From an uncultured Gammaproteobacteria bacterium (GTDB lineage Bacteria > Patescibacteriota > Patescibacteriia > Magasanikbacterales > UBA922), in the NCBI GenBank assembly GCA_964565405.1, contig CAZMEW010000002.1, positions 20,918 to 84,917 on the forward strand: a stretch of 64,000 bases of DNA, in the 5' to 3' direction. Positions 5,287 to 36,934 of this stretch are shown one piece after another (position 1 is the stretch's first letter; the number at the start of each line of letters is the position of its first letter). The position numbers and the translations under genes were made by a program. The notes beneath the pieces are model-generated. The model saw only the letters and a list, made by a program, of their open reading frames with translations. It searched no databases and was not told the origin of the DNA.

Positions 5287-5817
5287 TTATTTGAGTATCG
5301 CGGTGATCGTAAAAGGAATATTTTCTTTTCGGGTGAGTTCTCCCTCAGGTATGGTTACTGCTTCAAGGGAGGGCAAACTTTTTACCGCCTTCTCACAGCG
5401 TGCAAGTGTGTCACGATTCTCGGCAACTCCAGCAAGAGAAAATGTGTGTGAATCGCGATCAAAGATGACCGAACTTACCTCAACACCTTCAGGAAGTATA
5501 TTGAAAATTTCATGAATTCGAGGTGACCAGAGGATAAATTGTTTTTGTATTTCGTCTACAGTCTGGATTTGATTATTAATATCAACGATGTGTTTTGTAT
5601 CCGTATGATACGAATTTTTTTGAGAAAGCATACTCACGGTGAGTGCTGCCTGGTAATTGATAAAAAAACTCTGAGCAATAAGTAGAATTGCTGCGAGAAT
5701 TGCAACAATTGAAAAAACTAATGCGCATGAAGTCTTGAGGTAAGTAAAAAGTGCAAGTCTTTTTAAATGCGTCTTTTTGGTATCTGATAATACGTTGATT
5801 CTGACTGGAAACATCAT
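5287..5817 (-). CDS. pilN: type IV pilus assembly protein PilN-like
   Basis: Bitopic protein with N-terminal TM segment, 176 aa, directly downstream of pilM. Confidence 0.55.
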   Translation of the reverse strand: MMFPVRINVLSDTKKTHLKRLALFTYLKTSCALVFSIVAILAAILLIAQSFFINYQAALTVSMLSQKNSYHTDTKHIVDINNQIQTVDEIQKQFILWSPRIHEIFNILPEGVEVSSVIFDRDSHTFSLAGVAENRDTLARCEKAVKSLPSLEAVTIPEGELTRKENIPFTITAILK

Positions 5818-5822
5818 AATAT

Positions 5823-6929
5823 TTAGATGGTATCTCGAGTGGTGAAAGGATTGTCTGCAGCACGAAGGGCAAGGCCGATAGCAGTGGCGTAGGTAAGTGC
5901 TGATGTATTATCCATGGGTGCGTGTGCGGGATCGATTCCTAAATTTTTCCATACATTACCGCGTACACATTCAATAGAGAGGAGCTTACTGAGAACTTCA
6001 TCAAGATGTGGAAGGTTGCACGCGCCACCGCACAACACCATACGTGTAATTCGATGGGCGTGTACATTGTGTCCGTAGTATGATGAGAAAGTATGTTCAA
6101 GCGCGTGTGCAAACTGTGTTACAAATTTGAGAAGAACATTATCCTTCTTTTTACCTTCAGAAATCGAAAGGCCCACTTCTTTTTTTATTTTTTCAGCGGC
6201 AACTACATCCACCTTTTCTGTTTGCATGATTGCATTGGTAAGAATTTCACCTGAGAAGGGGAGTACTGTACTGAATTGTATCACGTCTCGATCATAGATT
6301 ATAACTTGTGTTCGGGTAGATCCAATATCAATGATTGCACGGGCTTCCTCTTTGTATTCTTTGTGTGCTGTGACCATAGACCGAGCAATGGCGACCTCCT
6401 CAATTTCAAGGGCCATAACACCAAGTCCGAGACTCTCAAGTAAATAGGTATAACTATCACCTACACGCTTGGGGATTGCTCCAACAAGTATTCGCATGTC
6501 AGTCTCAGTAGTTTCTGGTTGCACCACGTGCCAATCGATAGAATAATTTTCAACGTCATCAACAGGAAGATATTGTCCGATGTACGGTATAAGATCAGAC
6601 GATTGGATCGAACCCATCTCGTGTTCTGGAATCGTAATTAACTTGAGAAAACTATGATTTTCAGGAACTGAAGCAACAACCCAAGGACTCTTGATAGATT
6701 TTTCTCCTTTGTTTGATCCTCTGATTAGCTGTTCAATTTTTTTTCGGAGTGCTTCGGGTTGTTCAATAAGTCCATTAACAACCAATCCGGGTTCAAGAGG
6801 GCACATACGCATCGCAACAGGTGCAAACGTGGTACTCCGAAGCTTTTCTACGTTCTTAAGTTGGACCAGTTTTACTGAACGGTCTCCAATATCAATACCA
6901 AATGCATGAGGAAATGGGTGTGAGAGCAT
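5823..6929 (-). CDS. pilM: type IV pilus assembly protein PilM (actin-like ATPase fold)
   Basis: GIDIGDRSVKLV...IDIGSTRTQVIIYDRD, an FtsA/PilM-like fold. Confidence 0.8.
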   Translation of the reverse strand: MLSHPFPHAFGIDIGDRSVKLVQLKNVEKLRSTTFAPVAMRMCPLEPGLVVNGLIEQPEALRKKIEQLIRGSNKGEKSIKSPWVVASVPENHSFLKLITIPEHEMGSIQSSDLIPYIGQYLPVDDVENYSIDWHVVQPETTETDMRILVGAIPKRVGDSYTYLLESLGLGVMALEIEEVAIARSMVTAHKEYKEEARAIIDIGSTRTQVIIYDRDVIQFSTVLPFSGEILTNAIMQTEKVDVVAAEKIKKEVGLSISEGKKKDNVLLKFVTQFAHALEHTFSSYYGHNVHAHRITRMVLCGGACNLPHLDEVLSKLLSIECVRGNVWKNLGIDPAHAPMDNTSALTYATAIGLALRAADNPFTTRDTI

Positions 6930-6938
6930 GTGATGAGT

Positions 6939-8030
6939 CTAAAAAGTTTGAATAAGTGAATACATCGGCATGATAATGGATACTGCGATTCCTGCGACTC
7001 CAACGCCGAGCAGAATAATAACCACTGGTTCGATAATAGTCGAAAAGTTTTTCATGGTCTTATCTACCTCGTTTGAATAAAATGACGCAAGTTCTTGGAG
7101 TAAATGATCAATCTCACCAGTTTTTTCTCCAACCATTACCATTTCGGTAACCATGGGTGGAAATAAATTTTCAGAACGTGCAAGAATATCGGAAAGTTGT
7201 TCACCTTTTGATAGTGTCTCAGTCGCTTCCTTGAGAGCTTTTTGGTAACGTACATTTTTGCAAGTTTCACCGGCGATTCTCACTGCATCAACGATGGGGA
7301 TGGTGCTTTTCAAAAGTGAAGAAAGTGTCATGGAAAAACGAGCTAGATTGATTTTTTTGGATATTAAACCAAAAATCGGGAGACGGAGAAAAATACCGTG
7401 CATAATAAATCGGAAGGATTGATTTTTTTTTAACATAAACAGAAATATCGCCATGGACAGTATCGTCGCTCCTAAAACTAGGATGAGGTTGATAGGATTG
7501 GAAAGAAAATCGGTTACCGCGATCAGTATCCGAGTAGATAGAGGCAATTCAGCGCCAAATTCATCAAACATCGCGGTAAGTTTTGGTAATACGAGGGTCA
7601 CCATGAGAATACCTATAACGATGATCGCACCGACGATTACCGAGGGGTAAATCATGGCACCTTTGACAGTCGAGGTGAGTTCATGGCTTTTTTTCATTTG
7701 AACAACGACCTGATCGAGCGCGTCCTCAAGCTTTCCTGCAATTTCACCAGATGCAATCATGTTTGTTTGTAGGGGCGGAAAAATTTTTGGGTATAATTTG
7801 AGACTCTCGCTCAGTTGGTTACCTTTTTCCACATATTGGGTGATATCATGTACGATTGAGGCAAATTTTTTATTTTGAGTTTCTTTTCCGAGTACATGCA
7901 AACCCTCAATGAGTGATAGGCCTGCATGTATCATAGTCCTTAAATGGTCGAGAAAAAAAATCCGATCTACAATTGGGACGTGGATAAAGCCGATACGTTT
8001 GGGAGGAGATTGTATTTCTACATCTTTCAT
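6939..8030 (-). CDS. pilC: type IV pilus inner-membrane platform protein PilC (GspF family)
   Basis: Two T2SSF repeats and three TM regions. The ORF track start at 8069 overlaps pilB, and the internal Met at 8030 is the likelier start. Confidence 0.85.
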   Translation of the reverse strand: MKDVEIQSPPKRIGFIHVPIVDRIFFLDHLRTMIHAGLSLIEGLHVLGKETQNKKFASIVHDITQYVEKGNQLSESLKLYPKIFPPLQTNMIASGEIAGKLEDALDQVVVQMKKSHELTSTVKGAMIYPSVIVGAIIVIGILMVTLVLPKLTAMFDEFGAELPLSTRILIAVTDFLSNPINLILVLGATILSMAIFLFMLKKNQSFRFIMHGIFLRLPIFGLISKKINLARFSMTLSSLLKSTIPIVDAVRIAGETCKNVRYQKALKEATETLSKGEQLSDILARSENLFPPMVTEMVMVGEKTGEIDHLLQELASFYSNEVDKTMKNFSTIIEPVVIILLGVGVAGIAVSIIMPMYSLIQTF

Positions 8031-8037
8031 AAGTGGT

Positions 8038-9753
8038 TTAGTCTTTGGTGGCGCGAAGAATCTCTTCAATAGTGGTCAGTCCTTGCTTTGCCTTTATCAA
8101 TCCGTCCTGGAGTAAGGTGATCATGCCATTTTTAAGAGCATATTCTTTGATTTCTGTCGCATTTGCCTTGGTATTGATAATTTTTTGGAGTCCAGGATCG
8201 ATGACCATGACTTCATAGATTCCAATTCTACCCTTATACCCAGAGCCACCGCATTTTTTGCAACCCTTGCCTCGGTAGAACGTGAAGGATTCCAATGTTT
8301 TTTCTGTACTTGAAAGCTTTAAATGTTGTTCTTTGAATAAAGTGGAAAGTTTTGTTTTGTCGATCAAAACATGTAGTTGTTTTAATTCCTTACTTTCCAG
8401 TTTGAATGATTCTTTGCAATTCTGACATATTTTTCTGACTAAGCGCTGAGCAATAATGATGTTTGCAGTGAATGCAACAAGAAAGGGCGGGATGTCCATG
8501 TCAAGAAGACGGGGTAAAGTGGTCGGAGCGTCGTTGGTATGGAGCGTTGAAAGTACGAGGTGTCCAGTCATTGCTGCATGGATAGCTATTTCAGCCGTTT
8601 CCTTGTCTCGGATTTCTCCCACCATGATAATGTCAGGATCTTGGCGAAGAAATGCTCTGAGACCAGAGGCAAAGGTAAAACCAGCCTTAGGATTAATCTG
8701 GCTCTGATTGATACCACTAACGTGATACTCGATCGGATCCTCAATCGTGCAGATATTCACATCAGGTTGATTGAGCATGCCGAGAATAGAGTACAAGGTA
8801 GTCGTTTTTCCAGAACCCGTAGGACCAGTGACGAGAACCATACCGTGTGGTTTTTCAATCGCTTCCTCTACCAATTCTTTAACTCCTGGGAGAAAGCCGA
8901 GTTCATCGAGAGTGAGAGCCTTCTGCCCCTCATGCAACAAACGCATAACAATTTTTTCTCCATCGTATACAGGAATAATAGATACCCGAAAAGAAAGTGT
9001 TTCACCTTGTACTGAAATTTTGAATCGTCCGTCTTGCGGAACCATATGTTCATCAATTTTCAGATTTGAGAGAATTTTAATTCGAGCAACAATACCACTT
9101 TGGACTGCTTTGGGTAAATGCATCATCTCACGCAAGATTCCATCAATACGAAAGCGCACCACTACATCCAATTCAGTTGGTTCAATGTGTATATCACTTG
9201 AATTTTCAAAAACCGAGTGTTCGAGGACTGTATTGACGATATTGATAATAGGGAGCTCTTCGGCTGCTTTCTTCAAATCAGTGGGCTCTGAATGTGAAAG
9301 CGGTTGACTAAGTTCTTGTTTTAAATCAGAGTGATATTTACGCAGCGATTCTTTGATTTCTCGAGGAATAGTGATAAATATTTCAATATCCTTTCTAGTT
9401 TTTCTTCGGATAAATTCAATGGTCTGAACATCGGTTGGATCAGTCAAAGCAATCTTGAGTGAAGAATCAGTTTTTTCAAACGCAATAATATGGTGTGCTT
9501 CTGCAAAGGCTTCAGGTAGTTCATACAATGTTTCCTCAGGGATGTCGCGTCCTTTAAGAGAAATTCGCGAAACACCGTACTCATTAGCAATTGCATCATA
9601 GAGAGTATCTTCTTTGACAACATTTTTTTCGACTAGGTGAGTTTCAAGATCTTTACCACGATTGCGTGCGTCTTCAAGATAGGTCTCAATCTGAGAATCA
9701 GAAAGTTTGAATTTTTTTACAAGAATTTTTTTGAATTCTTCCAATGGTAACAT
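8038..9753 (-). CDS. pilB: type IV pilus assembly ATPase PilB (GspE family)
   Basis: Walker A motif VLVTGPTGSGKTTTLYS and a C-terminal tetracysteine Zn motif CQNCKESF...CKKCGGSG, with an N-terminal GSPII_E_N domain. Confidence 0.9.
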   Translation of the reverse strand: MLPLEEFKKILVKKFKLSDSQIETYLEDARNRGKDLETHLVEKNVVKEDTLYDAIANEYGVSRISLKGRDIPEETLYELPEAFAEAHHIIAFEKTDSSLKIALTDPTDVQTIEFIRRKTRKDIEIFITIPREIKESLRKYHSDLKQELSQPLSHSEPTDLKKAAEELPIINIVNTVLEHSVFENSSDIHIEPTELDVVVRFRIDGILREMMHLPKAVQSGIVARIKILSNLKIDEHMVPQDGRFKISVQGETLSFRVSIIPVYDGEKIVMRLLHEGQKALTLDELGFLPGVKELVEEAIEKPHGMVLVTGPTGSGKTTTLYSILGMLNQPDVNICTIEDPIEYHVSGINQSQINPKAGFTFASGLRAFLRQDPDIIMVGEIRDKETAEIAIHAAMTGHLVLSTLHTNDAPTTLPRLLDMDIPPFLVAFTANIIIAQRLVRKICQNCKESFKLESKELKQLHVLIDKTKLSTLFKEQHLKLSSTEKTLESFTFYRGKGCKKCGGSGYKGRIGIYEVMVIDPGLQKIINTKANATEIKEYALKNGMITLLQDGLIKAKQGLTTIEEILRATKD

Positions 9754-24606: not shown

Positions 24607-25155
24607 ATGAAAACAATAAAAAAATTATTAGGTATCGGAGTGTTTATACTCTTTGTTTTGGGTATATTCTCACCTCTAGCGGTACAGGGGGATGCCAATC
24701 CCAAACCTTATCAAGGTTCAGAAATGGAAAGACAACTAAACGCGTTTGGAGGGAGTAATGGGGCGCAGTTGCAGTCGGCGACTGACCCAAGAATCGTAGT
24801 TGCACGACTTATCAAAATATTTTTGAGTGTTGTAGGGGTAGTGGCTGTAGCACTCGGTGCGTATGCAGGGTTTTTGATTATGACCTCAAGTGGAAACGAA
24901 GAAAAAATTGATGTAGGTAAAAAGATTCTCTTATATTGCGTCTCGGGGGTCGCGGTAATGCTCGCAGCCTATAGTATCGTGTATTTCATCTACGTGGGGA
25001 TCTATAAGAGTTTTGAGAATCCTGCATCTTTTGGCTGTGATGGGGGAGTATATGTGAGATCAAATGATTCAGATCTCTATAATCCAGACACTATTCAGGA
25101 AGATACGATCCAGAGCGGGTATGTGGGCGACTCTTTTGAATGGAGATGTAATTGA
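24607..25155 (+). CDS. TrbC/VirB2-like pilin-family protein, paralog 11
   Basis: LGAYAGFLIMTSSGNEEKIDVGKK...LAAYSIVYF. Confidence 0.6.
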   Translation: MKTIKKLLGIGVFILFVLGIFSPLAVQGDANPKPYQGSEMERQLNAFGGSNGAQLQSATDPRIVVARLIKIFLSVVGVVAVALGAYAGFLIMTSSGNEEKIDVGKKILLYCVSGVAVMLAAYSIVYFIYVGIYKSFENPASFGCDGGVYVRSNDSDLYNPDTIQEDTIQSGYVGDSFEWRCN

Positions 25156-26251: not shown

Positions 26252-26493
26252 AGATCAGGAGGGGTAGTTCCCGAAGATAAGTATAGCAATTCCATGAAAA
26301 CAATAAAACGCCATGACGGCGTTTTATGGTGAGATCCCCTTAGGGGTGACTAACGGGGCCTGGCCCAAGACTTTCGTATAATAGCAGCTTTATGGAGAAG
26401 GGTGCAATTATTGAATTGTGATGAACTAATTGCGGATAAAGATGATTCTGCGTCTATGGCAGCAGAGCAGGGAAGGTGTTAGAATAGCCGTAT

Positions 26494-27348
26494 ATGCAAA
26501 CTATCATAGTTCCAAAACCAAAAGATAAGAGTCTTACTTCACAGCTCGTGTCGCTCTATAACACATTTAAAGGTCCGTTACATGACGAACAGGTGACTTT
26601 TGATCTGTCTGAGGTGCCATGGGTGTGCCCCGCGTTATTGTTGCCAATCAGCGCATATATTAACTCCACGAGCAGTGAGTATAGTGTGAATACTAACGGT
26701 AACACTGCCGCCTATCTTGAAACAATTAAATTTCCAAAAGGGGTTGATTCAGTGTCAGTTTTTGAAGCACAGACACAAGAGCATAAAACCTTTATTCCTA
26801 TCAGTGTTTTAAAAAAGCAAATGGGGGTAGAACGAGAGCGGCTGGAGTCTATGTTTGGAAAAATGGTAAGTAAAGTCATAGAGGCTGCAACAGGTACACA
26901 AAATGCTATATATTATCCGATTAGTGAATTAGTCACTAATATCTTTGAACATAGTAAAAAAGAGGAAGGATATATTTTTGGGCAATGGTATCCAACAAAA
27001 GGTTATTTGGATATTTGTATTGTGGACCGGGGACGCGGTTTAGCTCAGTCATATAAAGATGAAAAAGACCAGATATTATCAGATGCAGACGCTATCGGTG
27101 CTGTTATGAACGGACAGTCAACTAAAGCAAACAAAGAGCGAGGTTACGGCATACGAACCTCTAAGCAGGTTGTATGCAAAGGATTGAAAGGTGAATTTAT
27201 GCTGGTTTCCGGCTCTGCCGCACTATTAACCACAGAAACAGAAGAGCGTTTGATTGCATTACCGGAGTTTTCATGGCAAGGAGTAATCATCGCGTACCGT
27301 ATACCTAAACCAGAGCACCCTGTTGACATTTCACCGTATTTGGAATAA
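26494..27348 (+). CDS. GHKL/HATPase_c-type ATP-binding protein (RsbW-like serine kinase fold) with an extra N-terminal domain
   Basis: ELVTNIFEHS (N-box), DRGRGL and GYGIRTSKQ (G-boxes). Confidence 0.55.
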   Translation: MQTIIVPKPKDKSLTSQLVSLYNTFKGPLHDEQVTFDLSEVPWVCPALLLPISAYINSTSSEYSVNTNGNTAAYLETIKFPKGVDSVSVFEAQTQEHKTFIPISVLKKQMGVERERLESMFGKMVSKVIEAATGTQNAIYYPISELVTNIFEHSKKEEGYIFGQWYPTKGYLDICIVDRGRGLAQSYKDEKDQILSDADAIGAVMNGQSTKANKERGYGIRTSKQVVCKGLKGEFMLVSGSAALLTTETEERLIALPEFSWQGVIIAYRIPKPEHPVDISPYLE

Positions 27349-27389
27349 AATGATTAATCCGCTATACTAGAAAAGCGGTAACGGAACAT

Positions 27390-27734
27390 ATGAAAGAGAA
27401 CGAAAAACATACAATAGATGTAGAGCAGCTTCTAGCACCAATAATTGGTTCGCGTGATATTGCTGACCGGTTGAAAGAAGCAATTGCAGACGCTCGCACC
27501 AAAGCGGTTGATTTGGATTTCCAAAATGTTGAATTTGTTTCTCGTTCAGCAGCGCATGAGATGCTTTTGATTAAAGAAGTTTTTAATCGTAAAGCTATAA
27601 ATAAAAAAGATGTTTCATTTGTGAATACAAATAAGGCAGTGACGGATATGTTTCGAGTTATTGCGGCAAATCGTGCAATCCCTAAAGCCCCTGCAAATTT
27701 TGATCCTCATCATATCTCGATAAATTCGCTGTAG
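27390..27734 (+). CDS. STAS-like (DUF4325-type) small protein, partner of the upstream GHKL ATPase
   Basis: 114 aa, DLDFQNVEFVSRSAAHEML. Pairs of these two protein types are a recurring module. Confidence 0.45.
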   Translation: MKENEKHTIDVEQLLAPIIGSRDIADRLKEAIADARTKAVDLDFQNVEFVSRSAAHEMLLIKEVFNRKAINKKDVSFVNTNKAVTDMFRVIAANRAIPKAPANFDPHHISINSL

Positions 27735-27756
27735 GCTTAAGTTTTGGTTACAGAAG

Positions 27757-27790
27757 CTCAAGCCTTACAGGGCTTGATTTTTTATTCTTT
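27757..27790 (+). terminator. rho-independent terminator
   Basis: CAAGCC(ttacagg)GCTTG hairpin followed by ATTTTTTATT. Confidence 0.55.
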
Positions 27791-27825
27791 ATAGTGTATA
27801 GTTGTCCAACAAAAGTCCCTGTAGG

Positions 27826-27900
27826 GGTGGCTATGGTGTAGTGGTAACACAGAGGTTTGTGGTACCTTTATCACGGGTTCGATCCCCGTTAGCCACCCCC
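27826..27900 (+). tRNA. tRNA-His (anticodon GTG) with encoded G-1
   Basis: G-1, acceptor stem GTGGCTA/TAGCCAC, D-arm GTGT..ACAC, anticodon loop TTGTGGT, T-arm ACGGG TTCGATC CCCGT, discriminator C. Confidence 0.8.
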
Positions 27901-27931
27901 ACCGGGATTTTTCTTTTTTAAAAGTTTTTTT

Positions 27932-28972
27932 ATGTCCTCTCAAATCATTATAAAAAACTCAGACCAACACTATCTAAAAACAGAGAAGTTTATTAGTGAA
28001 TGCGAGAAACGGTGTTTACGAACAGTCAATAAGGAATTGCTAAAGAAACTCAAAGAACTTGATTTGATTAATCCTATATTTACCTCAAAAGAAGGTGATT
28101 TTTATGATTTGTATCAACTCCTGGAAGTTAGTTTTATCGTCAAAAAATGTAAACTTACAGACTTAGAGAAAGAAAAGGTGCAAATTTTAGAAGAGCTGGG
28201 ACCGATAAAACGGATATTACCTTTACTTCAAGACATACGTTATTTTTATCAGCCGGAACTCTATGGACAAATTAGCAGCGGAGTCTTGCCGCCTGATGAG
28301 TTTGAGATAGAACCTTTTCAGGACGTTCTACGTAGTTATGAAAAGAATCTAAAAAGTTTTAAACCAACTGAATATATTAAAAAACATGGATTTGATAAAG
28401 AAGAGATTAAAGAAATCAGAGATTCAATTTTTATAAGAGCACATTGGTTTGACCCGATGCAGGATTGGTACGCGTTTTTAAGAACCATAAGAACTAAGGA
28501 TTACAGTAACTATTTTAAAAAGATAAAAGGAGACGTGCTACTTGCCCATGACTATTATATTGTTGCAGAGTTGTTGACGTTTCTTTATCGAGATTCTTTT
28601 AATGATTCAATCCTAGACCCGGAAGATATTATTGATGGAACAGGTGGCAAATGGAAAGAGGGGGAATGTGCTAATTGCGGTAAGAAAATTAAAAAGATAA
28701 ATTTTAGGCACCGATATTGTTACGAATGTAAGATAAACGAAAAAGAAACCAGAATAGATTTTCATCATTGTTGTAAATGTAATGAAGTATTATTACGATA
28801 CATCGATGGGAATATGGTATTTGAAAAAATAAGTACGCACAGTAAAGCAAAGAAGGGTACGTTAACAAAGCCTATTCAAATATCCCTAGAGTATGGAAAG
28901 ATGCACATAGAGGTAATATGTGCTGATTGTGACCAAATTAATCATATTCCACTTAGCAGCGGATGGTTCTAA
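27932..28972 (+). CDS. hypothetical protein with a C-terminal multi-Cys zinc-ribbon (island cargo)
   Basis: AT-rich ORF. C-terminal motifs CANCGKK...CYECK...HHCCKCN...CADCDQ. Confidence 0.5.
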   Translation: MSSQIIIKNSDQHYLKTEKFISECEKRCLRTVNKELLKKLKELDLINPIFTSKEGDFYDLYQLLEVSFIVKKCKLTDLEKEKVQILEELGPIKRILPLLQDIRYFYQPELYGQISSGVLPPDEFEIEPFQDVLRSYEKNLKSFKPTEYIKKHGFDKEEIKEIRDSIFIRAHWFDPMQDWYAFLRTIRTKDYSNYFKKIKGDVLLAHDYYIVAELLTFLYRDSFNDSILDPEDIIDGTGGKWKEGECANCGKKIKKINFRHRYCYECKINEKETRIDFHHCCKCNEVLLRYIDGNMVFEKISTHSKAKKGTLTKPIQISLEYGKMHIEVICADCDQINHIPLSSGWF

Positions 28973-29219
28973 ATTGACAGGGAATACATAGATGATATAA
29001 TACAATTGTTCATTTAAAACTACAGTCATCCGTGAGGTGACCAGTTCGGACAATGAAGGGCCGGACAACTAACTGATTCATCAGTCTTTTTAAGACGCGA
29101 GGAAAAAGTGGTTGTTCGGCTTTTTTATTTTACAACCTCTTTGACCTTCTAATTAAGCGAGCTCGAATCAAGCTCGTTTTTTGTTAGCATGAATAAAGAG
29201 AGAAATAAAAAAATGCATA

Positions 29220-30557
29220 GTGAGAAAAATAAAATCATTGCTACACAAATTGCACAATTTTTGTTTTCTATTTGGGAAAAAGAACTATTACATAACGGCA
29301 ATCAAGCTGCCGCCTCAAAGTCAGGTTTTCCGAGAGATTATCCTGGCAATGGGACGGCAACTTGATAGTCGACCAAAATCTCTCGGTATGGTCGACACAA
29401 TACGTCTTAAAATAGAGTCTTTTAATGCCCTAGATATGGGCTATTTTAACGAAGTACGAAAAAGAAGCGCAACCGATGAGATGAGAAATATAACCAAACA
29501 AATAACACGTACGAATAATAAATTTAGAAAACATAGACAAGATAAGGGGCTATATACTCCTAAATTTCAGATTGAAGAAAATTACTATGGGACAATAATG
29601 AAGAAAACACTTGTATTGGAATTGTCCTTGCCAAAATTTGTTTTTGGAACAAATCTACATGAGCTTACTCAAGCGGATTGGCTTGATACAGTACAAAAAC
29701 TCCTCTTCTTTTTAAAAGAAATAAAAGTTGAAGTATTTGAACAAGATATTATGCAGGCAATTGTAACAAGTATATCTTATTCAAGAAATTTAGATATAAC
29801 TGAAATCTGTACTGGTCAGCAAGCAATACGTCATCTTGCGCCATTTAATTATCGTCCGAGGTCTGATTATAATTATGTAATTCGTGAGCAAAAAAATGGT
29901 GGATCATATATTAAATACTTCAATAATTGCACATCCCTGATAATTTACGATAAATTACCTGAAATTGCGTACAATCCGGTAACCGCGATTGAAAAGGAAA
30001 TTGCAGAAATATGGAAAAGGCGAAGGGCAGGAGAATTTCCACAACGTGTGAAGGAGTATATTAGAGTGGAGGTAAGTTTACAGGACAAGGTGTCAATTAA
30101 ACAGGCAGTTCGTTCGGTAAATGGTCTAATACAAAATTCATTTACATTTAAAGAACTTTTTAATCAAGAACTAAGTAATCAGATTCTTCGCAAAGAGATT
30201 GATAGCGTTTTTAATCATTCATTACAAAAACCTATTCTACTATCTACCTATGACAGACCAACTGTACAGGCTTTACTGACTAAAAAGTTTCCTAGATTTA
30301 ATGAACGAATGAAAGTCGCAGGTTTTGTTGAAAAGTTACGGATTGAAAATATGGGGTTAAAAGAGCTCCGTAAGACTATGATAGATGGTTCCTGTGAACG
30401 AACTTGGTTTCGTTGGCAGAAAAAACTTAAAGAGCTTTTCGACGACATAGAACTCCGAGATTTAAAAATTTCAGAAACTCTCAGATCGGCTGATATTTTG
30501 AACTTTATTTTGAAAGAATTTAATTTAAAAGATAAAAAACAGCTATCACTTTTCTAG
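29220..30557 (+). CDS. hypothetical protein, possible mobile-element replication-initiation protein
   Basis: GTG start at 29220 per the ORF track; the internal ATG at 29349 (MGRQLDSRPKSLGMVDTIRLKIESF) is the more likely start. No confident family match from sequence alone. Context is a recombinase-bearing island. Confidence 0.4.
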   Translation: MRKIKSLLHKLHNFCFLFGKKNYYITAIKLPPQSQVFREIILAMGRQLDSRPKSLGMVDTIRLKIESFNALDMGYFNEVRKRSATDEMRNITKQITRTNNKFRKHRQDKGLYTPKFQIEENYYGTIMKKTLVLELSLPKFVFGTNLHELTQADWLDTVQKLLFFLKEIKVEVFEQDIMQAIVTSISYSRNLDITEICTGQQAIRHLAPFNYRPRSDYNYVIREQKNGGSYIKYFNNCTSLIIYDKLPEIAYNPVTAIEKEIAEIWKRRRAGEFPQRVKEYIRVEVSLQDKVSIKQAVRSVNGLIQNSFTFKELFNQELSNQILRKEIDSVFNHSLQKPILLSTYDRPTVQALLTKKFPRFNERMKVAGFVEKLRIENMGLKELRKTMIDGSCERTWFRWQKKLKELFDDIELRDLKISETLRSADILNFILKEFNLKDKKQLSLF

Positions 30558-30558
30558 T

Positions 30559-32121
30559 TTAGTTTTCTTCCTTCAGATTTGCAAAATACTCTCTTGCTTT
30601 CAGATTTATATAGTAATCACAATAGAGTTTCATAGCTATAACCTCAGTTAGGGTTATAGGGTGACTTTTCTCATGTTTTACATCAGCTTGAAGTGCGGTA
30701 GCAAGAGTTAAAGTTTTATCTAAATCCTTCATTTCTCCAATTTTACTAAGTTGTTTTTTGATAACTTCTCTAAAATCACTTATACCATCCCAATCGCCAA
30801 AGATAATCGTAGCGTTTTTGAGAGCTTTGTAAAAACTGTCAAATGCATTTGCCTCAAGTTGTAAGTGTATGTCAACTTTGCTGAAACAAGTGAGCCCCAT
30901 AGCATACTCTTTCAAAAAACTCTCTAGTTTTTTAGATTCCATCATGAAAAACGTAATAATATCGTAGGTTTTTCTTGCCGCGTTTTGGTCAAGTACTAGT
31001 CTTGCTTCATCAAAACCCACATGCAATCGTTTATGAGGTGAAACGACCAATTTTACACCACCGTTTGGGTCAGCTTCAAGATCAACAATATCTACATAAT
31101 AAGTGGATATATCCTTCTGTACATTCCACCAAAAAATACCTAAAGTCCCAACATTAAATGCGAGCACCACTGTCTTTGCCATAAAGAAACCGTGCTCCCA
31201 TACATAACTAGTATGAAGACCTTTCGGTAACGTAAGATCGATAAGAAGCTCGCCTTTTGTGAGTTTATTAGGGTCTTTACGGTTAGACTTATAGATCTTT
31301 ATACCCTCAACACCTTTATTCCAATCGGCAAACGCGTTATTCCGGATCGTATGAGAGGGGGTTTGGATTCGGATACGCATTCTATATTTTGGTGCGAAGG
31401 CTTCTTCACCTTCTGGCTTTTCCCGTTGCATTTCTTTCTGGGCATATTCTCGCATCGCAATCTCATTTTGACGATAGACTTCATGTAACCATTTAATCCA
31501 TTCCTTACCGTTTCCAAGTTCACCTAGTTTTTTTAAAGATAAGGGACCAAATATCTGTTTACGATACTCAGTATCTTCTGCTGCAGAAAAAAACCATATA
31601 ATTTCCTCAATATCACCATTTTCAAATGGTTTCAATTCAGTTGTCTTCTCAATTTCAAGTCGCGTACGTGTCAATCCAATAATCATCCGTGCTTCATCTT
31701 CCTTAACTCGCTTATTTATTGGTAAGGGATTTTGAGGATCTGTATAAAGCGACTCAAGTCGTCGCTCATGCAGATTGAGTGCTAAATGACGAGTTTTTTC
31801 AATGATTTCTTTTGTGAATTTTACATCGCGTAATATGTCTGCACCCCATATCGCCCAAAAAAGTTTTTTAACATGATCATCCATCGCACCTACAAGCTCT
31901 TCTCTTTCGGGGCGCATAGCAAAGCTCATATAGTTGATTGTTGACAATATAGATTTACCAATTTCTTCTAGTGCTAAAAGAGCAAGATGGAAACAAATGT
32001 GGTCTGCATTTTTTCCAATCTCATTTTCGGCCATGGACAGGAGTGCTTCTGCATTTGCAAGACACATTTCTCGCATTATTTTAAGTTTTTCATATTTTTC
32101 TTCGTGTTTCATAAATTTCAT
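30559..32121 (-). CDS. AbiV/HEPN-like N-terminal domain fused to a large unknown C-terminal domain (candidate abortive-infection / defence protein)
   Basis: N-terminal NAEALLSMAENEIGKNADHICFHLALLALEEIGKSIL resembles the AbiV-type HEPN helix pair. Total length is about 520 aa, against about 200 aa for AbiV. Confidence 0.45.
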   Translation of the reverse strand: MKFMKHEEKYEKLKIMREMCLANAEALLSMAENEIGKNADHICFHLALLALEEIGKSILSTINYMSFAMRPEREELVGAMDDHVKKLFWAIWGADILRDVKFTKEIIEKTRHLALNLHERRLESLYTDPQNPLPINKRVKEDEARMIIGLTRTRLEIEKTTELKPFENGDIEEIIWFFSAAEDTEYRKQIFGPLSLKKLGELGNGKEWIKWLHEVYRQNEIAMREYAQKEMQREKPEGEEAFAPKYRMRIRIQTPSHTIRNNAFADWNKGVEGIKIYKSNRKDPNKLTKGELLIDLTLPKGLHTSYVWEHGFFMAKTVVLAFNVGTLGIFWWNVQKDISTYYVDIVDLEADPNGGVKLVVSPHKRLHVGFDEARLVLDQNAARKTYDIITFFMMESKKLESFLKEYAMGLTCFSKVDIHLQLEANAFDSFYKALKNATIIFGDWDGISDFREVIKKQLSKIGEMKDLDKTLTLATALQADVKHEKSHPITLTEVIAMKLYCDYYINLKAREYFANLKEEN

Positions 32122-32199
32122 CAAGATGTATAAATTGAAGTACACGAAATATAACAAAACTTGCTAAATTGAGCAAAAATGGTAGTATATTCATGTCTG

Positions 32200-32362
32200 C
32201 CTACAATTTCACCGAGAGTTTATTTTTTTAAAGGACTATTAAGACTGTCTTGTCTTATCCGTTTTATTGCGGATAAAGATGGGCAGTCAACCTCCACAAA
32301 ACGGAAAGTCCTTGGACTCTCTGTGAATAGTGGGCAGACCGGTTTGGCTGCCCTTTTTTGTT
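32200..32362 (+). ncRNA. candidate structured small RNA / leader ending in an intrinsic terminator
   Basis: Nested complementary segments (AAGGACT...AGTCCTT; CCGTTTT...AAAACGG) and a terminal GGGCAGACC(ggttt)GGCTGCCC hairpin followed by TTTTTT. No ORF is present. Confidence 0.25.
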
Positions 32363-32390
32363 TTTATATTTAATTCTTCACTTTTCCGAT

Positions 32391-33116
32391 ATGGATAAAC
32401 CACAAGCTAACCACTCGCCGAAGAAACCATTTTATAAAACATGGTGGTTCGGTGTTATCATTCTTGGATGTATCATAGTTTCATTCAGTTCAAACTCTTC
32501 TAACGATAACATTTCGACTCAGCCGCCCGTACACCAACCTAATACACCAGTTGAGCAGACTGTCGTACCCACCGTAACCGATAAAACCCCCGCTAAAACA
32601 ACAGTAACACCCGCAGCCAAGAAAGACGAGCCTGTTACCGATGTAACCGCCCAGACAACCCAAAATACAGACCCTCAAAACCAGACAGGTTCAAACGTCT
32701 ACGATCAGATACGAAAAAGAGCACAGGAGAAATGGCCGAACGACCCTGACATGCAAGAATACACGTACGATAATCAAAAGGCTGCATACGAACAATTTTC
32801 ACTGATTACCGCGTATCCCAATATCAAAGCTCAAGCGGTTTCGAAGTGGCCGACGGACTACGAAATGCAAGTCTATATGTATAATGAACAAAAAACGGCA
32901 TATGAGCGAATGGAGATGATCACCAAATACCCGGAAATAAAAACATATGCCCAAAACAAATGGCCAACTGATTACAGTATGCAGGTCTACACCTATGATA
33001 ATCAGGTTACCGCTTATGAAACTATGCTTAATTATCCCAACAGTCCTAAAAAATCTGCCGCTCAGCGCAAATGGCCAAAAGACTATGAGATGCAGGTGTA
33101 TGAATATCAAAATTAG
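32391..33116 (+). CDS. membrane-anchored protein with 3.5 tandem ~37-aa repeats (KWP.DY.MQVY.Y...AYE)
   Basis: TM segment WWFGVIILGCIIVSF, then a Thr/Pro-rich linker, then repeats KWPNDPDMQEYTYDNQKAAYEQ / KWPTDYEMQVYMYNEQKTAYER / KWPTDYSMQVYTYDNQVTAYET / KWPKDYEMQVYEYQN. Confidence 0.55.
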   Translation: MDKPQANHSPKKPFYKTWWFGVIILGCIIVSFSSNSSNDNISTQPPVHQPNTPVEQTVVPTVTDKTPAKTTVTPAAKKDEPVTDVTAQTTQNTDPQNQTGSNVYDQIRKRAQEKWPNDPDMQEYTYDNQKAAYEQFSLITAYPNIKAQAVSKWPTDYEMQVYMYNEQKTAYERMEMITKYPEIKTYAQNKWPTDYSMQVYTYDNQVTAYETMLNYPNSPKKSAAQRKWPKDYEMQVYEYQN

Positions 33117-33303
33117 CTATCTTTTTGATTAGGTAGCACCTCCTCTCGTTTACTCTCCAATTGTCCCGCTTCAAGCATCATCGCTACATCAATAGGTGCT
33201 CGTACTTCGTGAGTAGTTCTTCATACTCATATGAGCTAATTCTAGCCTTGACAACAAGGATTTTTTGTGTTATTATCTCATGTTCCAAAACAGAGGAGGA
33301 TTC

Positions 33304-34002
33304 ATGGAACAACGAGTGATGAAGTACACGGAATGGGTAGGTTATTTTGAGGGGTGGGCTCAGCTAAAACTCCGCGGCCAGACATCCGATTCTCCGGGCA
33401 TCATCCCTCGGTGGACTGAGACTCGTGAGATTCGGGTGATGTGGGAAGAGGGCATCACTGATGACACGGGCGAGTTCGTAGTTCGAGAAATCGCGCAATG
33501 GATTCGTGAGCTTTGTCTCGGTCTTGAGTTCACCGTGGTGCCGTATGGCACCGGATGGCGTGAAGCAGGACGGCGCGTCAGCGTCACCGACTACATCCGC
33601 CCCGCACTGCTTCCGAGCGGTGTCGACTATGAACAGCTTTTTCGGCTGTCGTACCATGAGCCGTATCGACGTGTGCACCAACACGCAGACGTCTACATCA
33701 TGAAACGACCGTTTCATGATGACACGGTTTCGTGGGGATGCTCGATCTTCGAGTACGGTTGTCTACTATTGACGCTTCACGGCGGTCGACAGAACAACCG
33801 GGATTTCTTGCGCGGCGTGGTACGCCATGAACTCGGCCATCTCTTCGGGATGCCGATTCACTGTGACCATGTCGGTGTCGAAGGATGGGCCTACGACTCA
33901 TCCTGCAACATGCACTACGCGGTACCGTCTTCCAGACTGTGTCCGAAGTGTCGCTCTCTCCTTCATCTCTGGTGGCAGCACATCAAAGCTGCTCTCCGAT
34001 GA
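33304..34002 (+). CDS. archaemetzincin-like zinc metalloprotease (peptidase M54-like) in a GC-rich patch
   Basis: HELGHLFGMPIHCDH followed by C...CPKC, the archaemetzincin HExxHxxGxxHC + Cys4 signature. Local GC is markedly above the flanks. Confidence 0.55.
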   Translation: MEQRVMKYTEWVGYFEGWAQLKLRGQTSDSPGIIPRWTETREIRVMWEEGITDDTGEFVVREIAQWIRELCLGLEFTVVPYGTGWREAGRRVSVTDYIRPALLPSGVDYEQLFRLSYHEPYRRVHQHADVYIMKRPFHDDTVSWGCSIFEYGCLLLTLHGGRQNNRDFLRGVVRHELGHLFGMPIHCDHVGVEGWAYDSSCNMHYAVPSSRLCPKCRSLLHLWWQHIKAALR

Positions 34003-34250
34003 AGATGACCCTGATGCGTCGTGCATCTGGCTGAACCCCTCGGGGCTCGCTACATCGCACGCGCATCGGGGGACAGTCAAAAATACATCACACCTGTGGT
34101 GTCTTTTTGTTTATAATTATAATGTACCCCCACTAAATAAGTATTTCTCCAATAAGTATGACAAAAGTGTCAGTAGTTTATAGTGGTTTTGGCTAAAATA
34201 CTTGATTTTTAATAGAGGTTAGAACATACTGAGATAAACATTCTTCACCT

Positions 34251-35849
34251 ATGTCTAAAGAAAAAATCTCTCAAGCAACACTATCTAGGGCAGCTGCATA
34301 TATTCGAGAGAGTACCGAGGAACAGGATAAGGGATACTCACCGGATAACCAAAAAGAGACTATTTTAAGGTATGCCAGACAAAATGGGATTGAGGTAGTA
34401 GAGTGGTACAAGGACCTATTTACTGGGCGTAGTGCAGAAAAAAGAATTGATTTTCAACGAATGATTGCAGACGCAATGATGAAGAAATTTGACGTTATTT
34501 TGATATTTCATAGCTCTCGATTTGCACGAAATGTAGAAGAGTCACAGCAGTATAAAAAGTTACTGCGTAATAAATTAGGAATTAATGTTGTTTCGGTAAC
34601 ACAAAATTTTGGTGACCCTGACGATCCCGGCTCCTTCCTTAATGAAGGAATAAACGAATTGTTTGATGAACATGTATCGAGGAATATCGGTTTCTGGGTT
34701 GGTACGAGTTTAATGGCAAAACGACAAAAGGGTTATCAATTAGGAAATCCACCGCTTGGGTATTACAAAAAGAAGATAGGGTATGATAAAGAAAGAGATC
34801 GGGTGATGTATGAAGGGGTGTGGCGTGTAGAAACAGACGAAGCAAAGCTCGTAAACCAGATTTTCAATTTGTATATCGGAGGAAACATGTCCTTTGCTGA
34901 TATAGCGGCAGAGTTAAATAAAAATGGTGGTAAAACAAAACATGGACATCCTTTCACCTATAGCTCAATTAAAGATACGTTAAATAATCGTTCATATCTT
35001 GGTTACACATATTCTCCCCGTAGAAACTACCCAGAATTACGAGCGAAACATAAGCCAATTATAACTGAAGAGTTATTTAATAAGGCACAGGAAGTGCTCA
35101 ACGACCGTAGACGTTCGAAGGGTCGTTCAACTGCAAAACATAGGTTCTATTTTTTGCAGAGTTTAGTGTTTTGTTACGGTTGCTATAAGCATTTGAAAGG
35201 AAAAGAAAATAATCCATCGGCCCGGCTTTTGCCAAAAATGTACTGTGTCACACAGCCTTCAGATGGTAAGGAGTACTACAGTTATGCCTGTAAATATCGT
35301 CGTGAGAATCATAGCTGTAAGCAGAAGAGTGTTAAATGCGAGACGATTGATGATGAGGTTAGTACGTATTTAGAAGGCTTTACACTGCCTAAAGATGTTA
35401 TCGAGGATACCATCTCACAGGTACGGGAGATGATTCAGTCTGCAAAAAAGACGCCTGATATGGTAGGGCGCATCAAACGCTTGGAAGAAAAGAAGAAGAA
35501 AATTGAATTTATATTCACTAATACGTCAGAATTGAGTGAGGAACAATACTTAGGTAAGTTAGAGGAGGTGAATATCGAATTAAATAAGTATTCTCAATTC
35601 GACCGGGTAGCAAGTAATGCACGGCGTGAAGAAGAATTCATTAAAAAAACCGAGCGTTTGCTCGGGGATTTCAAATCTCTGTGGGATACGTTTGATAAGG
35701 TTGAACGACGAAGGTGGGCAATGATGACGTTGAGGCGTGTGTGGGTAAAAGATGGAAAAGTCTATGCAATCGAACCGCAAGAGGAGTATAAGCCATTATT
35801 TGTTGCACATAGGGAAGTCTTGGGTCGAGCGGAATTGAACCCGTGCTAG
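34251..35849 (+). CDS. large serine recombinase (resolvase catalytic domain + recombinase domain + zinc ribbon + coiled-coil)
   Basis: N-terminal AAYIRESTEEQ with catalytic Ser, Cys cluster CYGCYKH...C..C, 532 aa. Confidence 0.85.
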   Translation: MSKEKISQATLSRAAAYIRESTEEQDKGYSPDNQKETILRYARQNGIEVVEWYKDLFTGRSAEKRIDFQRMIADAMMKKFDVILIFHSSRFARNVEESQQYKKLLRNKLGINVVSVTQNFGDPDDPGSFLNEGINELFDEHVSRNIGFWVGTSLMAKRQKGYQLGNPPLGYYKKKIGYDKERDRVMYEGVWRVETDEAKLVNQIFNLYIGGNMSFADIAAELNKNGGKTKHGHPFTYSSIKDTLNNRSYLGYTYSPRRNYPELRAKHKPIITEELFNKAQEVLNDRRRSKGRSTAKHRFYFLQSLVFCYGCYKHLKGKENNPSARLLPKMYCVTQPSDGKEYYSYACKYRRENHSCKQKSVKCETIDDEVSTYLEGFTLPKDVIEDTISQVREMIQSAKKTPDMVGRIKRLEEKKKKIEFIFTNTSELSEEQYLGKLEEVNIELNKYSQFDRVASNARREEEFIKKTERLLGDFKSLWDTFDKVERRRWAMMTLRRVWVKDGKVYAIEPQEEYKPLFVAHREVLGRAELNPC

Positions 35850-35895
35850 GAGAGCCACAATCTCCTGTGCTACCATTACACCATAGCCACCCCTA
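35830..35895 (-). pseudogene. truncated tRNA-His-like fragment (5' about 60 nt only), inverted relative to the intact tRNA-His, overlapping the recombinase 3' end
   Basis: The reverse complement reads G-GTGGCTATGGTGTAATGGTAGCACAGGAGATTGTGGCTCTCCTAGCACGGGTTCAATTCC and then diverges (GCTCGACCCA), so the T-stem 3' half and the acceptor 3' strand are missing. It is about 80% identical to tRNA-His at 27826. Confidence 0.55.
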
Positions 35896-36022
35896 AATTG
35901 ACCTCAAATCAAATTGTGGAGACGAGTATACGTCAAAATAAGGCTTTTGTCAACGACAAGTATAACACAACCCTGCACCATATAGTGCAGGGTTTGGATA
36001 AAATAGTAGAGATTTTTGCGTA

Positions 36023-36754: not shown

Positions 36755-36862
36755 ATTGAGTTACATAAGAATTATACGGATAGTATTGCGTAATCAGGCC
36801 ATAATTGCAAGAGAGTGGTTGTCATAACAAAAATCCGCTTTTAATGACGGATTTTGTATATG

Positions 36863-36934
36863 TGAGCCCAGCAGGAATCGAACCTGCGTATCCAGCTTAG
36901 AAGGCTAGTGTTCTATCCACTGAACTATGGGCTC
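36863..36934 (-). tRNA. tRNA-Arg (anticodon TCT)
   Basis: Reverse complement GAGCCCA TA GTTC AGTGGATA GAAC A CTAGC CTTCTAA GCTGG ATAC GCAGG TTCGATT CCTGC TGGGCTC A. Confidence 0.8.

Follow-up and report, generated by a model that had tools for sequence, protein, structure and literature searches.

Where does the mobile element that appears to surround a tRNA-His gene of a Patescibacteria genome begin and end, and why should it hold an intact tRNA gene together with a broken one? The locus in question lies in a 64 kb stretch of DNA (the window; contig CAZMEW010000002.1 of assembly GCA_964565405.1, positions 20,918 to 84,917) from an uncultured bacterium assigned by GTDB to the Magasanikbacterales of the Patescibacteriota. 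Host-type genes in the window include gyrA, IleRS and genes for type IV pilin-like and T4SS (type IV secretion system) pilin-like proteins. An earlier reading of the same DNA (the original prediction) had proposed an element running from an intact tRNA-His at 27826 to a truncated, inverted copy of it near 35900, next to the gene of a large serine recombinase (LSR). An integrated element whose LSR abuts a tRNA-derived attachment junction is indeed supported, by a split tRNA-His, crossover cores and arms at both ends. We conclude that it is very probably an LSR integrative element located at 26358-35830, which splits the tRNA-His gene of its host and carries an intact replacement.

The two tRNA-His copies and the attachment junctions

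The tRNA genes and attachment features of the locus, as we read them, are as follows.

26342-26355, − strand: H3b, the 14-nt 3′ end (CGTTAGTCACCCCT) of the split host tRNA-His; left attachment junction, adjoining the MGDG-synthase gene
26356-26357: left crossover dinucleotide, GG on the + strand and CC in the tRNA orientation, between H3b and the Q arm and in register with the right junction
26358-26380, + strand: Q arm of attP, an inverted copy (gcctggCCCAAGACTTtcgtat) of the LSR-side P arm
27774-27802, + strand: promoter-like site upstream of the cargo tRNA-His, TTGATT-17-TATAGT, a consensus match at 9 of 12 positions
27826-27901, + strand: intact cargo tRNA-His(GTG), His_a, called by ARAGORN (Rfam tRNA, 61.9 bits)
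34251-35849, + strand: LSR gene, 532 amino acids (aa), product ending ...VLGRAELNPC; the 3′ end of the frame passes the att core and extends into host tRNA sequence
35808-35830, + strand: P arm of attP (atagggAAGTCTTGGGtcgagc), within the LSR coding sequence; equivalent arms co-vary with the partner arm in 11 related loci
35831-35832: right crossover dinucleotide, GG on the + strand and CC in the tRNA orientation, tRNA positions 61-62
35833-35902, − strand: H5b, the 5′ part (G-1 to T-loop) of the split host tRNA-His; right attachment junction
35925-35953, − strand: near-consensus promoter-like site (sigma-70 type) of the split host tRNA-His, TTGACA-17-TATACT, a consensus match at 11 of 12 positions
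36862-36934, − strand: tRNA-Arg(TCT), called by ARAGORN and confirmed by Rfam

ARAGORN called two tRNAs in the window, tRNA-His(GTG) and tRNA-Arg(TCT), and the predicted intact tRNA-His is thus present. The opposite-strand copy of its 5′ portion, described as about 80% identical, was recovered as well: a repeat search gave a 72-nt inverted repeat with arms at 27815-27886 and 35831-35902 (78% complementary), and BLAST aligned the two over 65 nt at 80%. The minus-strand copy aligned colinearly with the intact gene over G-1, the D-arm and the anticodon arm (GTG) as far as the T-loop, and diverges beyond it; the longest identical run common to both copies is 19 nt. The anticodon stems differ by compensatory changes (gaggt/acctt versus ggaga/tctcc), which indicates that the truncated copy came from a separate, once-functional tRNA-His and is no chance match. 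The D-arm of H5b is similar to that of the tRNA-His in two syntenic relatives (L001 and L004). A marginal Rfam tRNA match was obtained for the minus-strand copy at 35821-35890 (31.8 bits against a gathering score of 29), and ARAGORN did not call it as a tRNA. The possibility that it is a second functional tRNA, which the original prediction had raised against itself, can be set aside on this absence of a call and on the failure of the joined H5b and P sequences to form a tRNA.

As had been noted, the truncated copy diverges into the C-terminal codons of the 532-aa recombinase, the last 8 of which are antisense to the tRNA fragment. The protein matched Pfam Resolvase PF00239 (1.3e-23, residues 14-161) and Recombinase PF07508 (2.2e-19), and the integrase family phrog_95 in PHROG (1.9e-82); it missed the threshold for PF13408, which is precomputed for many of its homologues. 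The catalytic residues R19, E20, S21 and T22 are invariant in 22 homologues, as are C308, C347 and C356, with C311 nearly so. More than 100 homologue clusters were found, and the named ones at 39-56% identity belong to Patescibacteria-group taxa.

Only the last ~14 nt of the tRNA are absent from the truncated copy. This missing 3′ fragment was sought beside the intact tRNA and none was found there. A search of the window with the reverse complement of the tRNA-His 3′ end gave one extra site, 26342-26358, with 2 mismatches (0.06 expected by chance), just downstream of the host MGDG-synthase gene and 1.5 kb left of the intact tRNA. With the 3′ fragment placed at 26342-26355, the element would therefore be 26358-35830, 9,473 bp in length, and would include a histidine-kinase-like ATPase gene (HATPase) and a STAS-like gene as well as the intact tRNA-His. 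The left boundary proposed at 27826 thus has to be moved: the left junction is at 26342-26357, followed by the inverted LSR-side arm. Nor can the intact tRNA-His serve as the attachment site of this insertion, since it has both its own halves and lies as cargo inside the element.

On the + strand the left junction reads AGGGGTGACTAACG-GG-GCCTGGCCCAAGACTTTCG and the right junction ...GGGAAGTCTTGGGTCGAGC-GG-AATTGAACCCGTGC... Just two copies of the decamer AAGTCTTGGG are present in the 64-kb window (0.07 expected), at 26364-26373 (−) and 35815-35824 (+), inverted to each other and each 6 nt from a GG core. When the inner halves of the junctions were joined, a palindromic attP was obtained, ...AAGTCTTGGGTCGAGC-GG-GCCTGGCCCAAGACTT... 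When the outer halves were joined, H5b+CC+CGTTAGTCACCCCT formed a normal tRNA-His with one G-U pair by ARAGORN. Neither of the junctions as they now stand, H5b+P and Q+H3b, was accepted as a tRNA by ARAGORN. Hence attB lies in the host tRNA gene, and integration rebuilds no functional tRNA at the junctions. The anatomy of the junctions and the two sites reconstructed from them are direct observations.

We propose that the LSR would recombine the palindromic attP, one arm of which is formed by its own last codons, with attB inside the host tRNA-His gene, and this LSR would itself be the catalyst. The strands would be exchanged at CC, tRNA positions 61-62, on the border of the T-loop and the 3′ T-stem, so that the host gene would be split into a 5′ part (35833-35902) abutting the LSR 3′ end on the opposite strand and a 14-nt 3′ part (26342-26355) at the far end. 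With its complete, promoter-equipped tRNA-His (27826-27901) the element should make its own insertion survivable, and its imprecise loss should be costly; the cargo tRNA would then be required by the host, and the element may still be able to excise. The original prediction had regarded an inverted 5′ fragment as atypical. The fragment is real, and its form follows from an LSR crossover at positions 61-62 together with a reversed core polarity.

The promoter-like site of the split gene is now directed via the 5′ fragment, antisense into the 3′ end of the LSR gene, and an antisense RNA against the recombinase might be its product. In the reconstructed attP form (34251-35832 joined to 26358 onward), the LSR frame runs into the Q arm and gains a tail 36 aa longer. 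As the frame crosses the att core, the C-terminus of the LSR depends on the recombination state.

The same design in other Patescibacteria

Related LSR loci were fetched from species-representative genomes (77) and metagenomes (80), with up to 10 kb of flank for each. In L004 the order is Xer, tRNA-Arg(TCT), SPFH, then the element (split tRNA-His, intact tRNA-His, cargo, LSR and the tRNA 3′ end, H3), then MGDG synthase; the host genes flanking 26358-35830 in the window are the same. Three loci (L004, L020 and L022) have different LSR elements, 38-52% identical, at this same locus and in both orientations.

About 49 distinct Patescibacteria loci of the same design were found, and the pattern is seen throughout them. 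In the common polarity (~42 of the 49), the LSR strand ends in ...AAAGTCTTGGGTCAAGC-CC-CGTTAGCCACCCCA, that is, P arm, core and tRNA-His 3′ end; the ending, also found as ...GGTCAAGC-CC-CGTTAGCCACCCCA, is translated ...KVLGQAPLATP. An upstream tRNA-His 5′ fragment ends at the same position and is followed by an arm matching the reverse complement of the locus's own LSR arm. These arms co-vary in 11 loci and are locus-specific, for example CAATGACTTTT in L006, CAATCACTT in L022 and CTGACCCAAGACT in L114, which points to a palindromic attP and a true attL. It was also considered whether the 3′ end is borne by the element and restores the tRNA in most relatives; given the arm co-variation per locus, this is less parsimonious than a palindromic attP.

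In the reverse polarity, found in 7 loci (the window, L001, L003, L019, L085, L086/87 and L091), the P arm and GG lead into the tRNA-His 5′ part as its reverse complement; the LSR C-termini are ...ELNPC, ESDPR or GSNP. The window is an ordinary family member with reversed core polarity, and its cargo tRNA is therefore inverted relative to the split host gene. The reversed type did not form one clade in a neighbour-joining tree drawn without support values.

Sixteen common-polarity loci, 11 of them among the 18 for which the full 10-kb flank is available, have an intact tRNA-His in the interval from attL to the LSR gene and on the strand of the latter. Such a tRNA is also present in reverse-polarity L086 and L170 and in the window, giving at least 18 related loci in all. 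The cargo tRNA-His of the common-polarity relatives is 95-100% identical to their split host copy. Apparently, this LSR element family is sizeable in Patescibacteria and has not been described before.

Stacked tRNA-His 5′ fragments were found beside a functional or fused copy in L020 (3119-3280) and L085 (3350-3422 and 3780-3807, with a GIY-YIG gene between them), and in L020 the tRNA-His fragments are on the opposite strand relative to Xer-Arg-SPFH. These stacks and the strand of the L020 fragments suggest repeated replacement of the resident tRNA-His by such elements.

At L004 (2515-2583), L074 (1776-1848) and L001 (7409-7479), ARAGORN called the truncated 5′ fragment plus att arm as a tRNA, owing to a partial resemblance of the arm to the acceptor 3′ strand. 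Spurious second tRNA-His genes are to be expected when such genomes are annotated automatically.

Two loci depart from the common layout. L170 (Logan run SRR31558123) was at first taken as a free attP, which it is not: at 5720-8599 it has two convergent LSR genes (~63% nucleotide identity), tail-to-tail on one site, AAACTTATTGCGCAAGG-GG-GGTTGAGAAATGAGTTT, and the two ends of the contig show no overlap that would mark it as circular. The last codons of each gene are the other gene's arm, an intact tRNA-His is found at 242-315, and the site resembles an attP to which two recombinase genes, opposite in core polarity, each contribute. In L098 (1600-1660) the LSR ends ...RKDGVQVP and reads forward through the whole T-arm and acceptor 3′ strand (ACGGGGTTCAAGTCCCGTAGGCCACCC), a junction position different from that in the rest of the family.

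Several points weigh against our interpretation of the window. No close relative with an empty site, where SPFH and MGDG synthase would enclose an intact host tRNA-His, was retrieved, nor was an excised circle of this element, and a search of IMG/VR for free or circular forms gave no close relatives. The genome beyond the window may hold further tRNA-His genes, in which case the cargo tRNA is perhaps not essential. An attB-like cargo tRNA in cis with attP should provoke self-recombination on the excised circle. H3b has one change, turning a G-C pair into G-U. The left junction could be the relic of an older element, and the HATPase and STAS genes would then be host or older DNA.

The L078 junction and alternative explanations

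The 90% cluster of the window LSR has a second member, P0001, which ends in ...GRAGSNP instead of ...GRAELNPC. P0001 is encoded on L078 (Logan run SRR32414319), a contig of 3,274 bp that matches window 32624-35830 at 100% and then continues as the exact reverse complement of 27886-27823, the 64-nt 5′ half of the cargo tRNA. In a three-way comparison the cargo tRNA (a) reads GGGTTCGATC-CC-CGTTA, the split copy (b) GGGTTCAATT-CC-GCTCG and L078 GGGTTCGATC-CC-GCTCG. The exchange is thus confined to CC (27885-27886 / 35831-35832), which is also the dinucleotide of the integration core, and mismatches lie on either side of it. Homologous recombination was ruled out as the origin of L078, as the exchange lies within a 2-bp identity flanked by mismatches; with a longest common run of 19 nt, the junction should also be no artefact of a k=31 de Bruijn graph. 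The LSR is predicted to have 568 aa in the attP form, 532 aa in the window and 531 aa in L078.

L078 ends 3 nt past the tRNA with 'tcta', while inversion of the window predicts 'taca'. Only this one flipped-state junction was found, in one other run, and its reciprocal was not found; the window state, including both junctions, was reproduced at 100% identity by independent Logan assemblies from two other runs. No contig from the L078 run is on record with the exact STAS, HATPase, SPFH or p346 protein (p346 is the product of a 346-aa open reading frame, ORF, of the element), and exact-protein look-ups of Xer, MGDG synthase and the 445-aa ORF returned nothing on record. None of the contigs of reverse-polarity loci ends inside tRNA-His, which was tested as a sign of assembly breaks caused by inversion.

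How L078 arose can be answered in two ways. An ordinary attP × attB reaction, to which we give not far short of an even chance, would involve either an excised circle with its own cargo tRNA in cis or integration into an identical a-type tRNA-His of another genome, which could belong to that host or have come in as cargo of an earlier element. Such a reaction is canonical for LSRs, and the 95-100% identity of host and cargo copies in common-polarity relatives means that an identical host gene would not be unusual. The 'tcta' flank of L078, unlike that of the window, also fits, and the stacked 5′ fragments (L020 and L085) and relic junctions (L091 and L170) fit repeated insertion into whichever tRNA-His is currently functional. 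However, if an a-type cargo tRNA were also present, a 64-nt repeat, longer than k, should have broken the contig, and no break is seen; moreover, 100% identity over 64 nt to the window cargo copy is more simply explained by the same molecule. It is also possible, and we put it forward only tentatively, that the element inverts in situ, the LSR recombining the cargo tRNA-His (27885-27886) with the right junction (35831-35832) and flipping 7,944 bp. H5b would then be completed by the element's 3′ half (H3a) into a working tRNA-His at its native position, and the cargo 5′ half would become the LSR-fused truncated copy, changing the C-terminus from ...GRAELNPC to ...GRAGSNP. Such inversion would not compete with integration as an explanation; it would be something that the element does in addition, once integrated. 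L078 carries the predicted junction with the switch confined to the 2-bp CC, the predicted reciprocal H5b+CC+H3a is a valid tRNA-His by ARAGORN, promoter-like sites are kept on both 5′ halves, and L078 runs unbroken through the 64-nt 5′ half, which argues against a second copy in that sample. On the other hand, just one of the two predicted junctions was seen, in a sample other than that of the window, with the wrong flank and with the exact STAS, HATPase, p346 and SPFH proteins missing from the record of that run. Characterised LSRs (the phiC31, Bxb1 and A118 integrases) are not known to pair attB with attL or attR, and an inversion would need just such an attB-like × attR-type reaction. A comparable contrast, in favour of inversion, exists among the relatives, between L086 on the one side and L091 and L085 on the other: the LSR of L086 adjoins a host-type fragment, with an intact cargo tRNA present, and in the 87%-identical L091 the LSR is fused to a cargo-type 5′ half, with an arm-CC-H3 junction 185 nt beyond it. 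This pair is, though, equally explained by serial insertion into the cargo tRNA of a previous element; cargo and split copies also resemble each other in their upstream flanks, and the acceptor strand of the L091 3′ fragment is mismatched to the cargo-type 5′ half. No left junction was found for L086 within the 4.1 kb available.

Two further explanations concern the element itself. An extent of 27826-35900, with the intact tRNA-His as one att site and the truncated inverted copy at the other end, is very unlikely. This segment is bracketed by the 72-nt inverted repeat and is of mixed composition inside; against this, the intact gene has both its own halves, the matching 3′ end of the fragment, together with core and arm, was located at 26342-26380, a single simple insertion cannot be bounded by inverted sites whose CC core is non-palindromic, and in relatives the intact tRNA lies inside attL. 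That there is no mobile element, the truncated copy being a decayed duplicate tRNA beside a resident recombinase, is hardly credible: the failure to find an empty site would agree with it, but the break falls at the identical tRNA position in dozens of loci, and matching 5′ and 3′ fragments flank LSR segments with differing cargo, in either orientation, at a syntenic locus. The element at 26358-35830 thus remains our interpretation. Going beyond it, one may speculate, with a good deal less than even confidence, that the cargo tRNA-His of the element serves the LSR as a further partner site. The body of the integrated element, 7.9 kb, would then flip and one 3′ end would be joined alternately to two promoter-bearing 5′ halves, acting as a tRNA-gene switch and altering the LSR C-terminus and the antisense transcription; over evolution, successive elements would replace, and sometimes invert, the resident essential tRNA-His of Patescibacteria. 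If the inversion is true, an essential RNA gene would be switched by an integrase-type serine recombinase through a non-canonical pair of sites, which would be unusual.

Known systems and the cargo genes

In the tRNA-dependent lysogeny of actinobacteriophages (e.g. Fionnbharth, Cluster L; Guerrero-Bustamante & Hatfull 2024, PMC10865867), attB overlaps an essential host tRNA gene, the junctions rebuild no functional tRNA, and a phage tRNA of the same isotype can replace it. Those phages are tailed and temperate, with tyrosine integrases and a common core of ~10 bp; the paper describes no serine-integrase case, and our literature search found nothing combining LSRs, tRNA-His and Patescibacteria. 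The present element likewise has a host tRNA destroyed at attB and an intact tRNA of the same isotype inside. It differs in its LSR, its 2-bp core, its tRNA-His target, its Patescibacteria host and its size of 9.5 kb, with a putative rolling-circle Rep and no virion genes detected. Lacking the tyrosine integrase of a tailed phage, it works alike without being a member of that group as described. The cargo-tRNA strategy, previously described only for tyrosine-integrase phages, is here seen in a variant that an LSR would carry out.

Like other LSR integrases (phiC31, Bxb1, A118, TP901-1, SprA of SPbeta and SpoIVCA), the window LSR has Resolvase and Recombinase domains and conserved cysteines, imperfect inverted-repeat arms around a 2-bp crossover, a target gene that is disrupted, and attL/attR that are hybrids of attP and attB. 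Unlike them, it has a tRNA gene as target, an attP arm in its own last codons and an attB-like site in cis. In the phages with integration-dependent immunity (BPs and Brujita) and in SSV1-type integrases, all using tyrosine recombinases, attP lies in a phage gene and recombination changes the 3′ end of that gene, which is the repressor gene in the former and the integrase gene, split by the event, in the latter; here only the last few LSR codons change. With the serine invertases (Hin, Gin and shufflon-like systems) the locus shares inverted sites flanking a recombinase-bearing segment and one flipped-state junction (L078). The enzyme is nevertheless an LSR and not a small invertase, its sites are a tRNA gene and an att junction, and the flipped and window states come from different samples.

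More distant LSR relatives (32-35% identity), mostly from Solirubrobacterales, were found in Actinomycetota (L027-L077 and L115-L167). In 59 of 98 such loci the LSR frame ends antisense in tRNA-Asp(GTC), with C-termini such as ...GSDGTRTRDLRRDRPAL and ...RRDSNPRP, each followed by a stop. The overlapped tRNA-Asp is called as a full gene by ARAGORN, which would fit a classical element-supplied 3′ part, whereas the Patescibacteria elements leave their target tRNA broken and bring a separate copy as cargo. The wider LSR clade thus appears to be tRNA-targeting.

These data would extend cargo-tRNA compensation, described in 2024 for tyrosine-integrase mycobacteriophages, to LSRs, to a small element of non-viral appearance and to the Patescibacteria, of whose mobile elements little is known. 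They give natural attP and attB sites for a whole LSR clade at single-dinucleotide resolution, useful for LSR-based genome engineering. In the annotation of candidate phyla radiation (CPR) genomes, split tRNA-His genes and odd LSR C-termini (PLATP, ESDPR and GSNP) would otherwise look like errors. The tRNA-His of a small genome may moreover depend on a mobile element, a form of addiction.

The remaining genes of the element are as follows.

26494-27348, + strand: histidine-kinase-like ATPase protein; weak Pfam HATPase_c match (1.1e-4), phrog_3364 (2.6e-36)
27390-27734, + strand: STAS-like small protein; Pfam STAS 3.1e-3, below the family cut-off, phrog_20761 (3.6e-4)
27932-28972, + strand: 346-aa ORF (p346) with C-terminal CxxC pairs; one homologue, at the same position in L074 (27% identity)
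29388-30557, + strand: 445-aa ORF, probable rolling-circle Rep of the filamentous-phage gene II (G2P/CRI) type; open frame from 29220, likely start (MVDTIRLK) at 29388
30559-32157, − strand: HEPN/AbiV-like protein; Pfam PF18728 (HEPN_AbiV, 2.1e-10)
32358-33116, + strand: membrane-anchored repeat protein; phrog_4980 (superinfection exclusion, 1.8e-6), repeats seen in the translation
33265-34002, + strand: GC-rich ORF with a HELGH motif; GC 0.51 against ~0.40 around it, weak zincin matches (E 0.2-0.4)

Most of the gene assignments made in the original prediction agree with these results. The AbiV/HEPN-like protein was matched by its Pfam family and the repeat protein by repeats in its translation. 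The GC-rich metalloprotease kept its composition and its HELGH motif, while the zincin matches were too weak to establish the enzyme. The possible Rep also found support: the gene is conserved next to the LSR in 9 other loci, and PF05144 (G2P/Phage_CRI) was matched by 4 of the 9 aligned homologues (best E 4.4e-6), with the window protein itself below threshold. It is thus probably a rolling-circle Rep, judging by its homologues. No PDB sequence match was found for it, alone or as a profile, and no close homologues were found by word-indexed search.

The 346-aa ORF had no match in Pfam, PHROG or PADLOC, PADLOC gave nothing convincing on the cargo, and Pfam and PHROG scans of the element ORFs found no virion or phage structural family and no Zot/pI match. 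An inovirus-like prophage was considered and is not supported, as the pI/Zot ATPase was not found and the G2P-type Rep is supported via homologues only. The cargo set suggests a small plasmid-like or satellite-like element and not a tailed prophage.

Two further observations were made in passing. Arrays of paralogous genes of ~130-180 aa, related to a 182-aa ORF of the window, lie near the tRNA-His locus in several Patescibacteria (window 24607-25155; L004, 13021-18523; L007, 2522-4931; L020, 912-2123). In four loci (L095, L097, L100 and L101) a short second ORF was found ~150-600 nt upstream of the full LSR gene; its product is like the recombinase domain of the LSR, with 33-37% identity to residues ~122-289.

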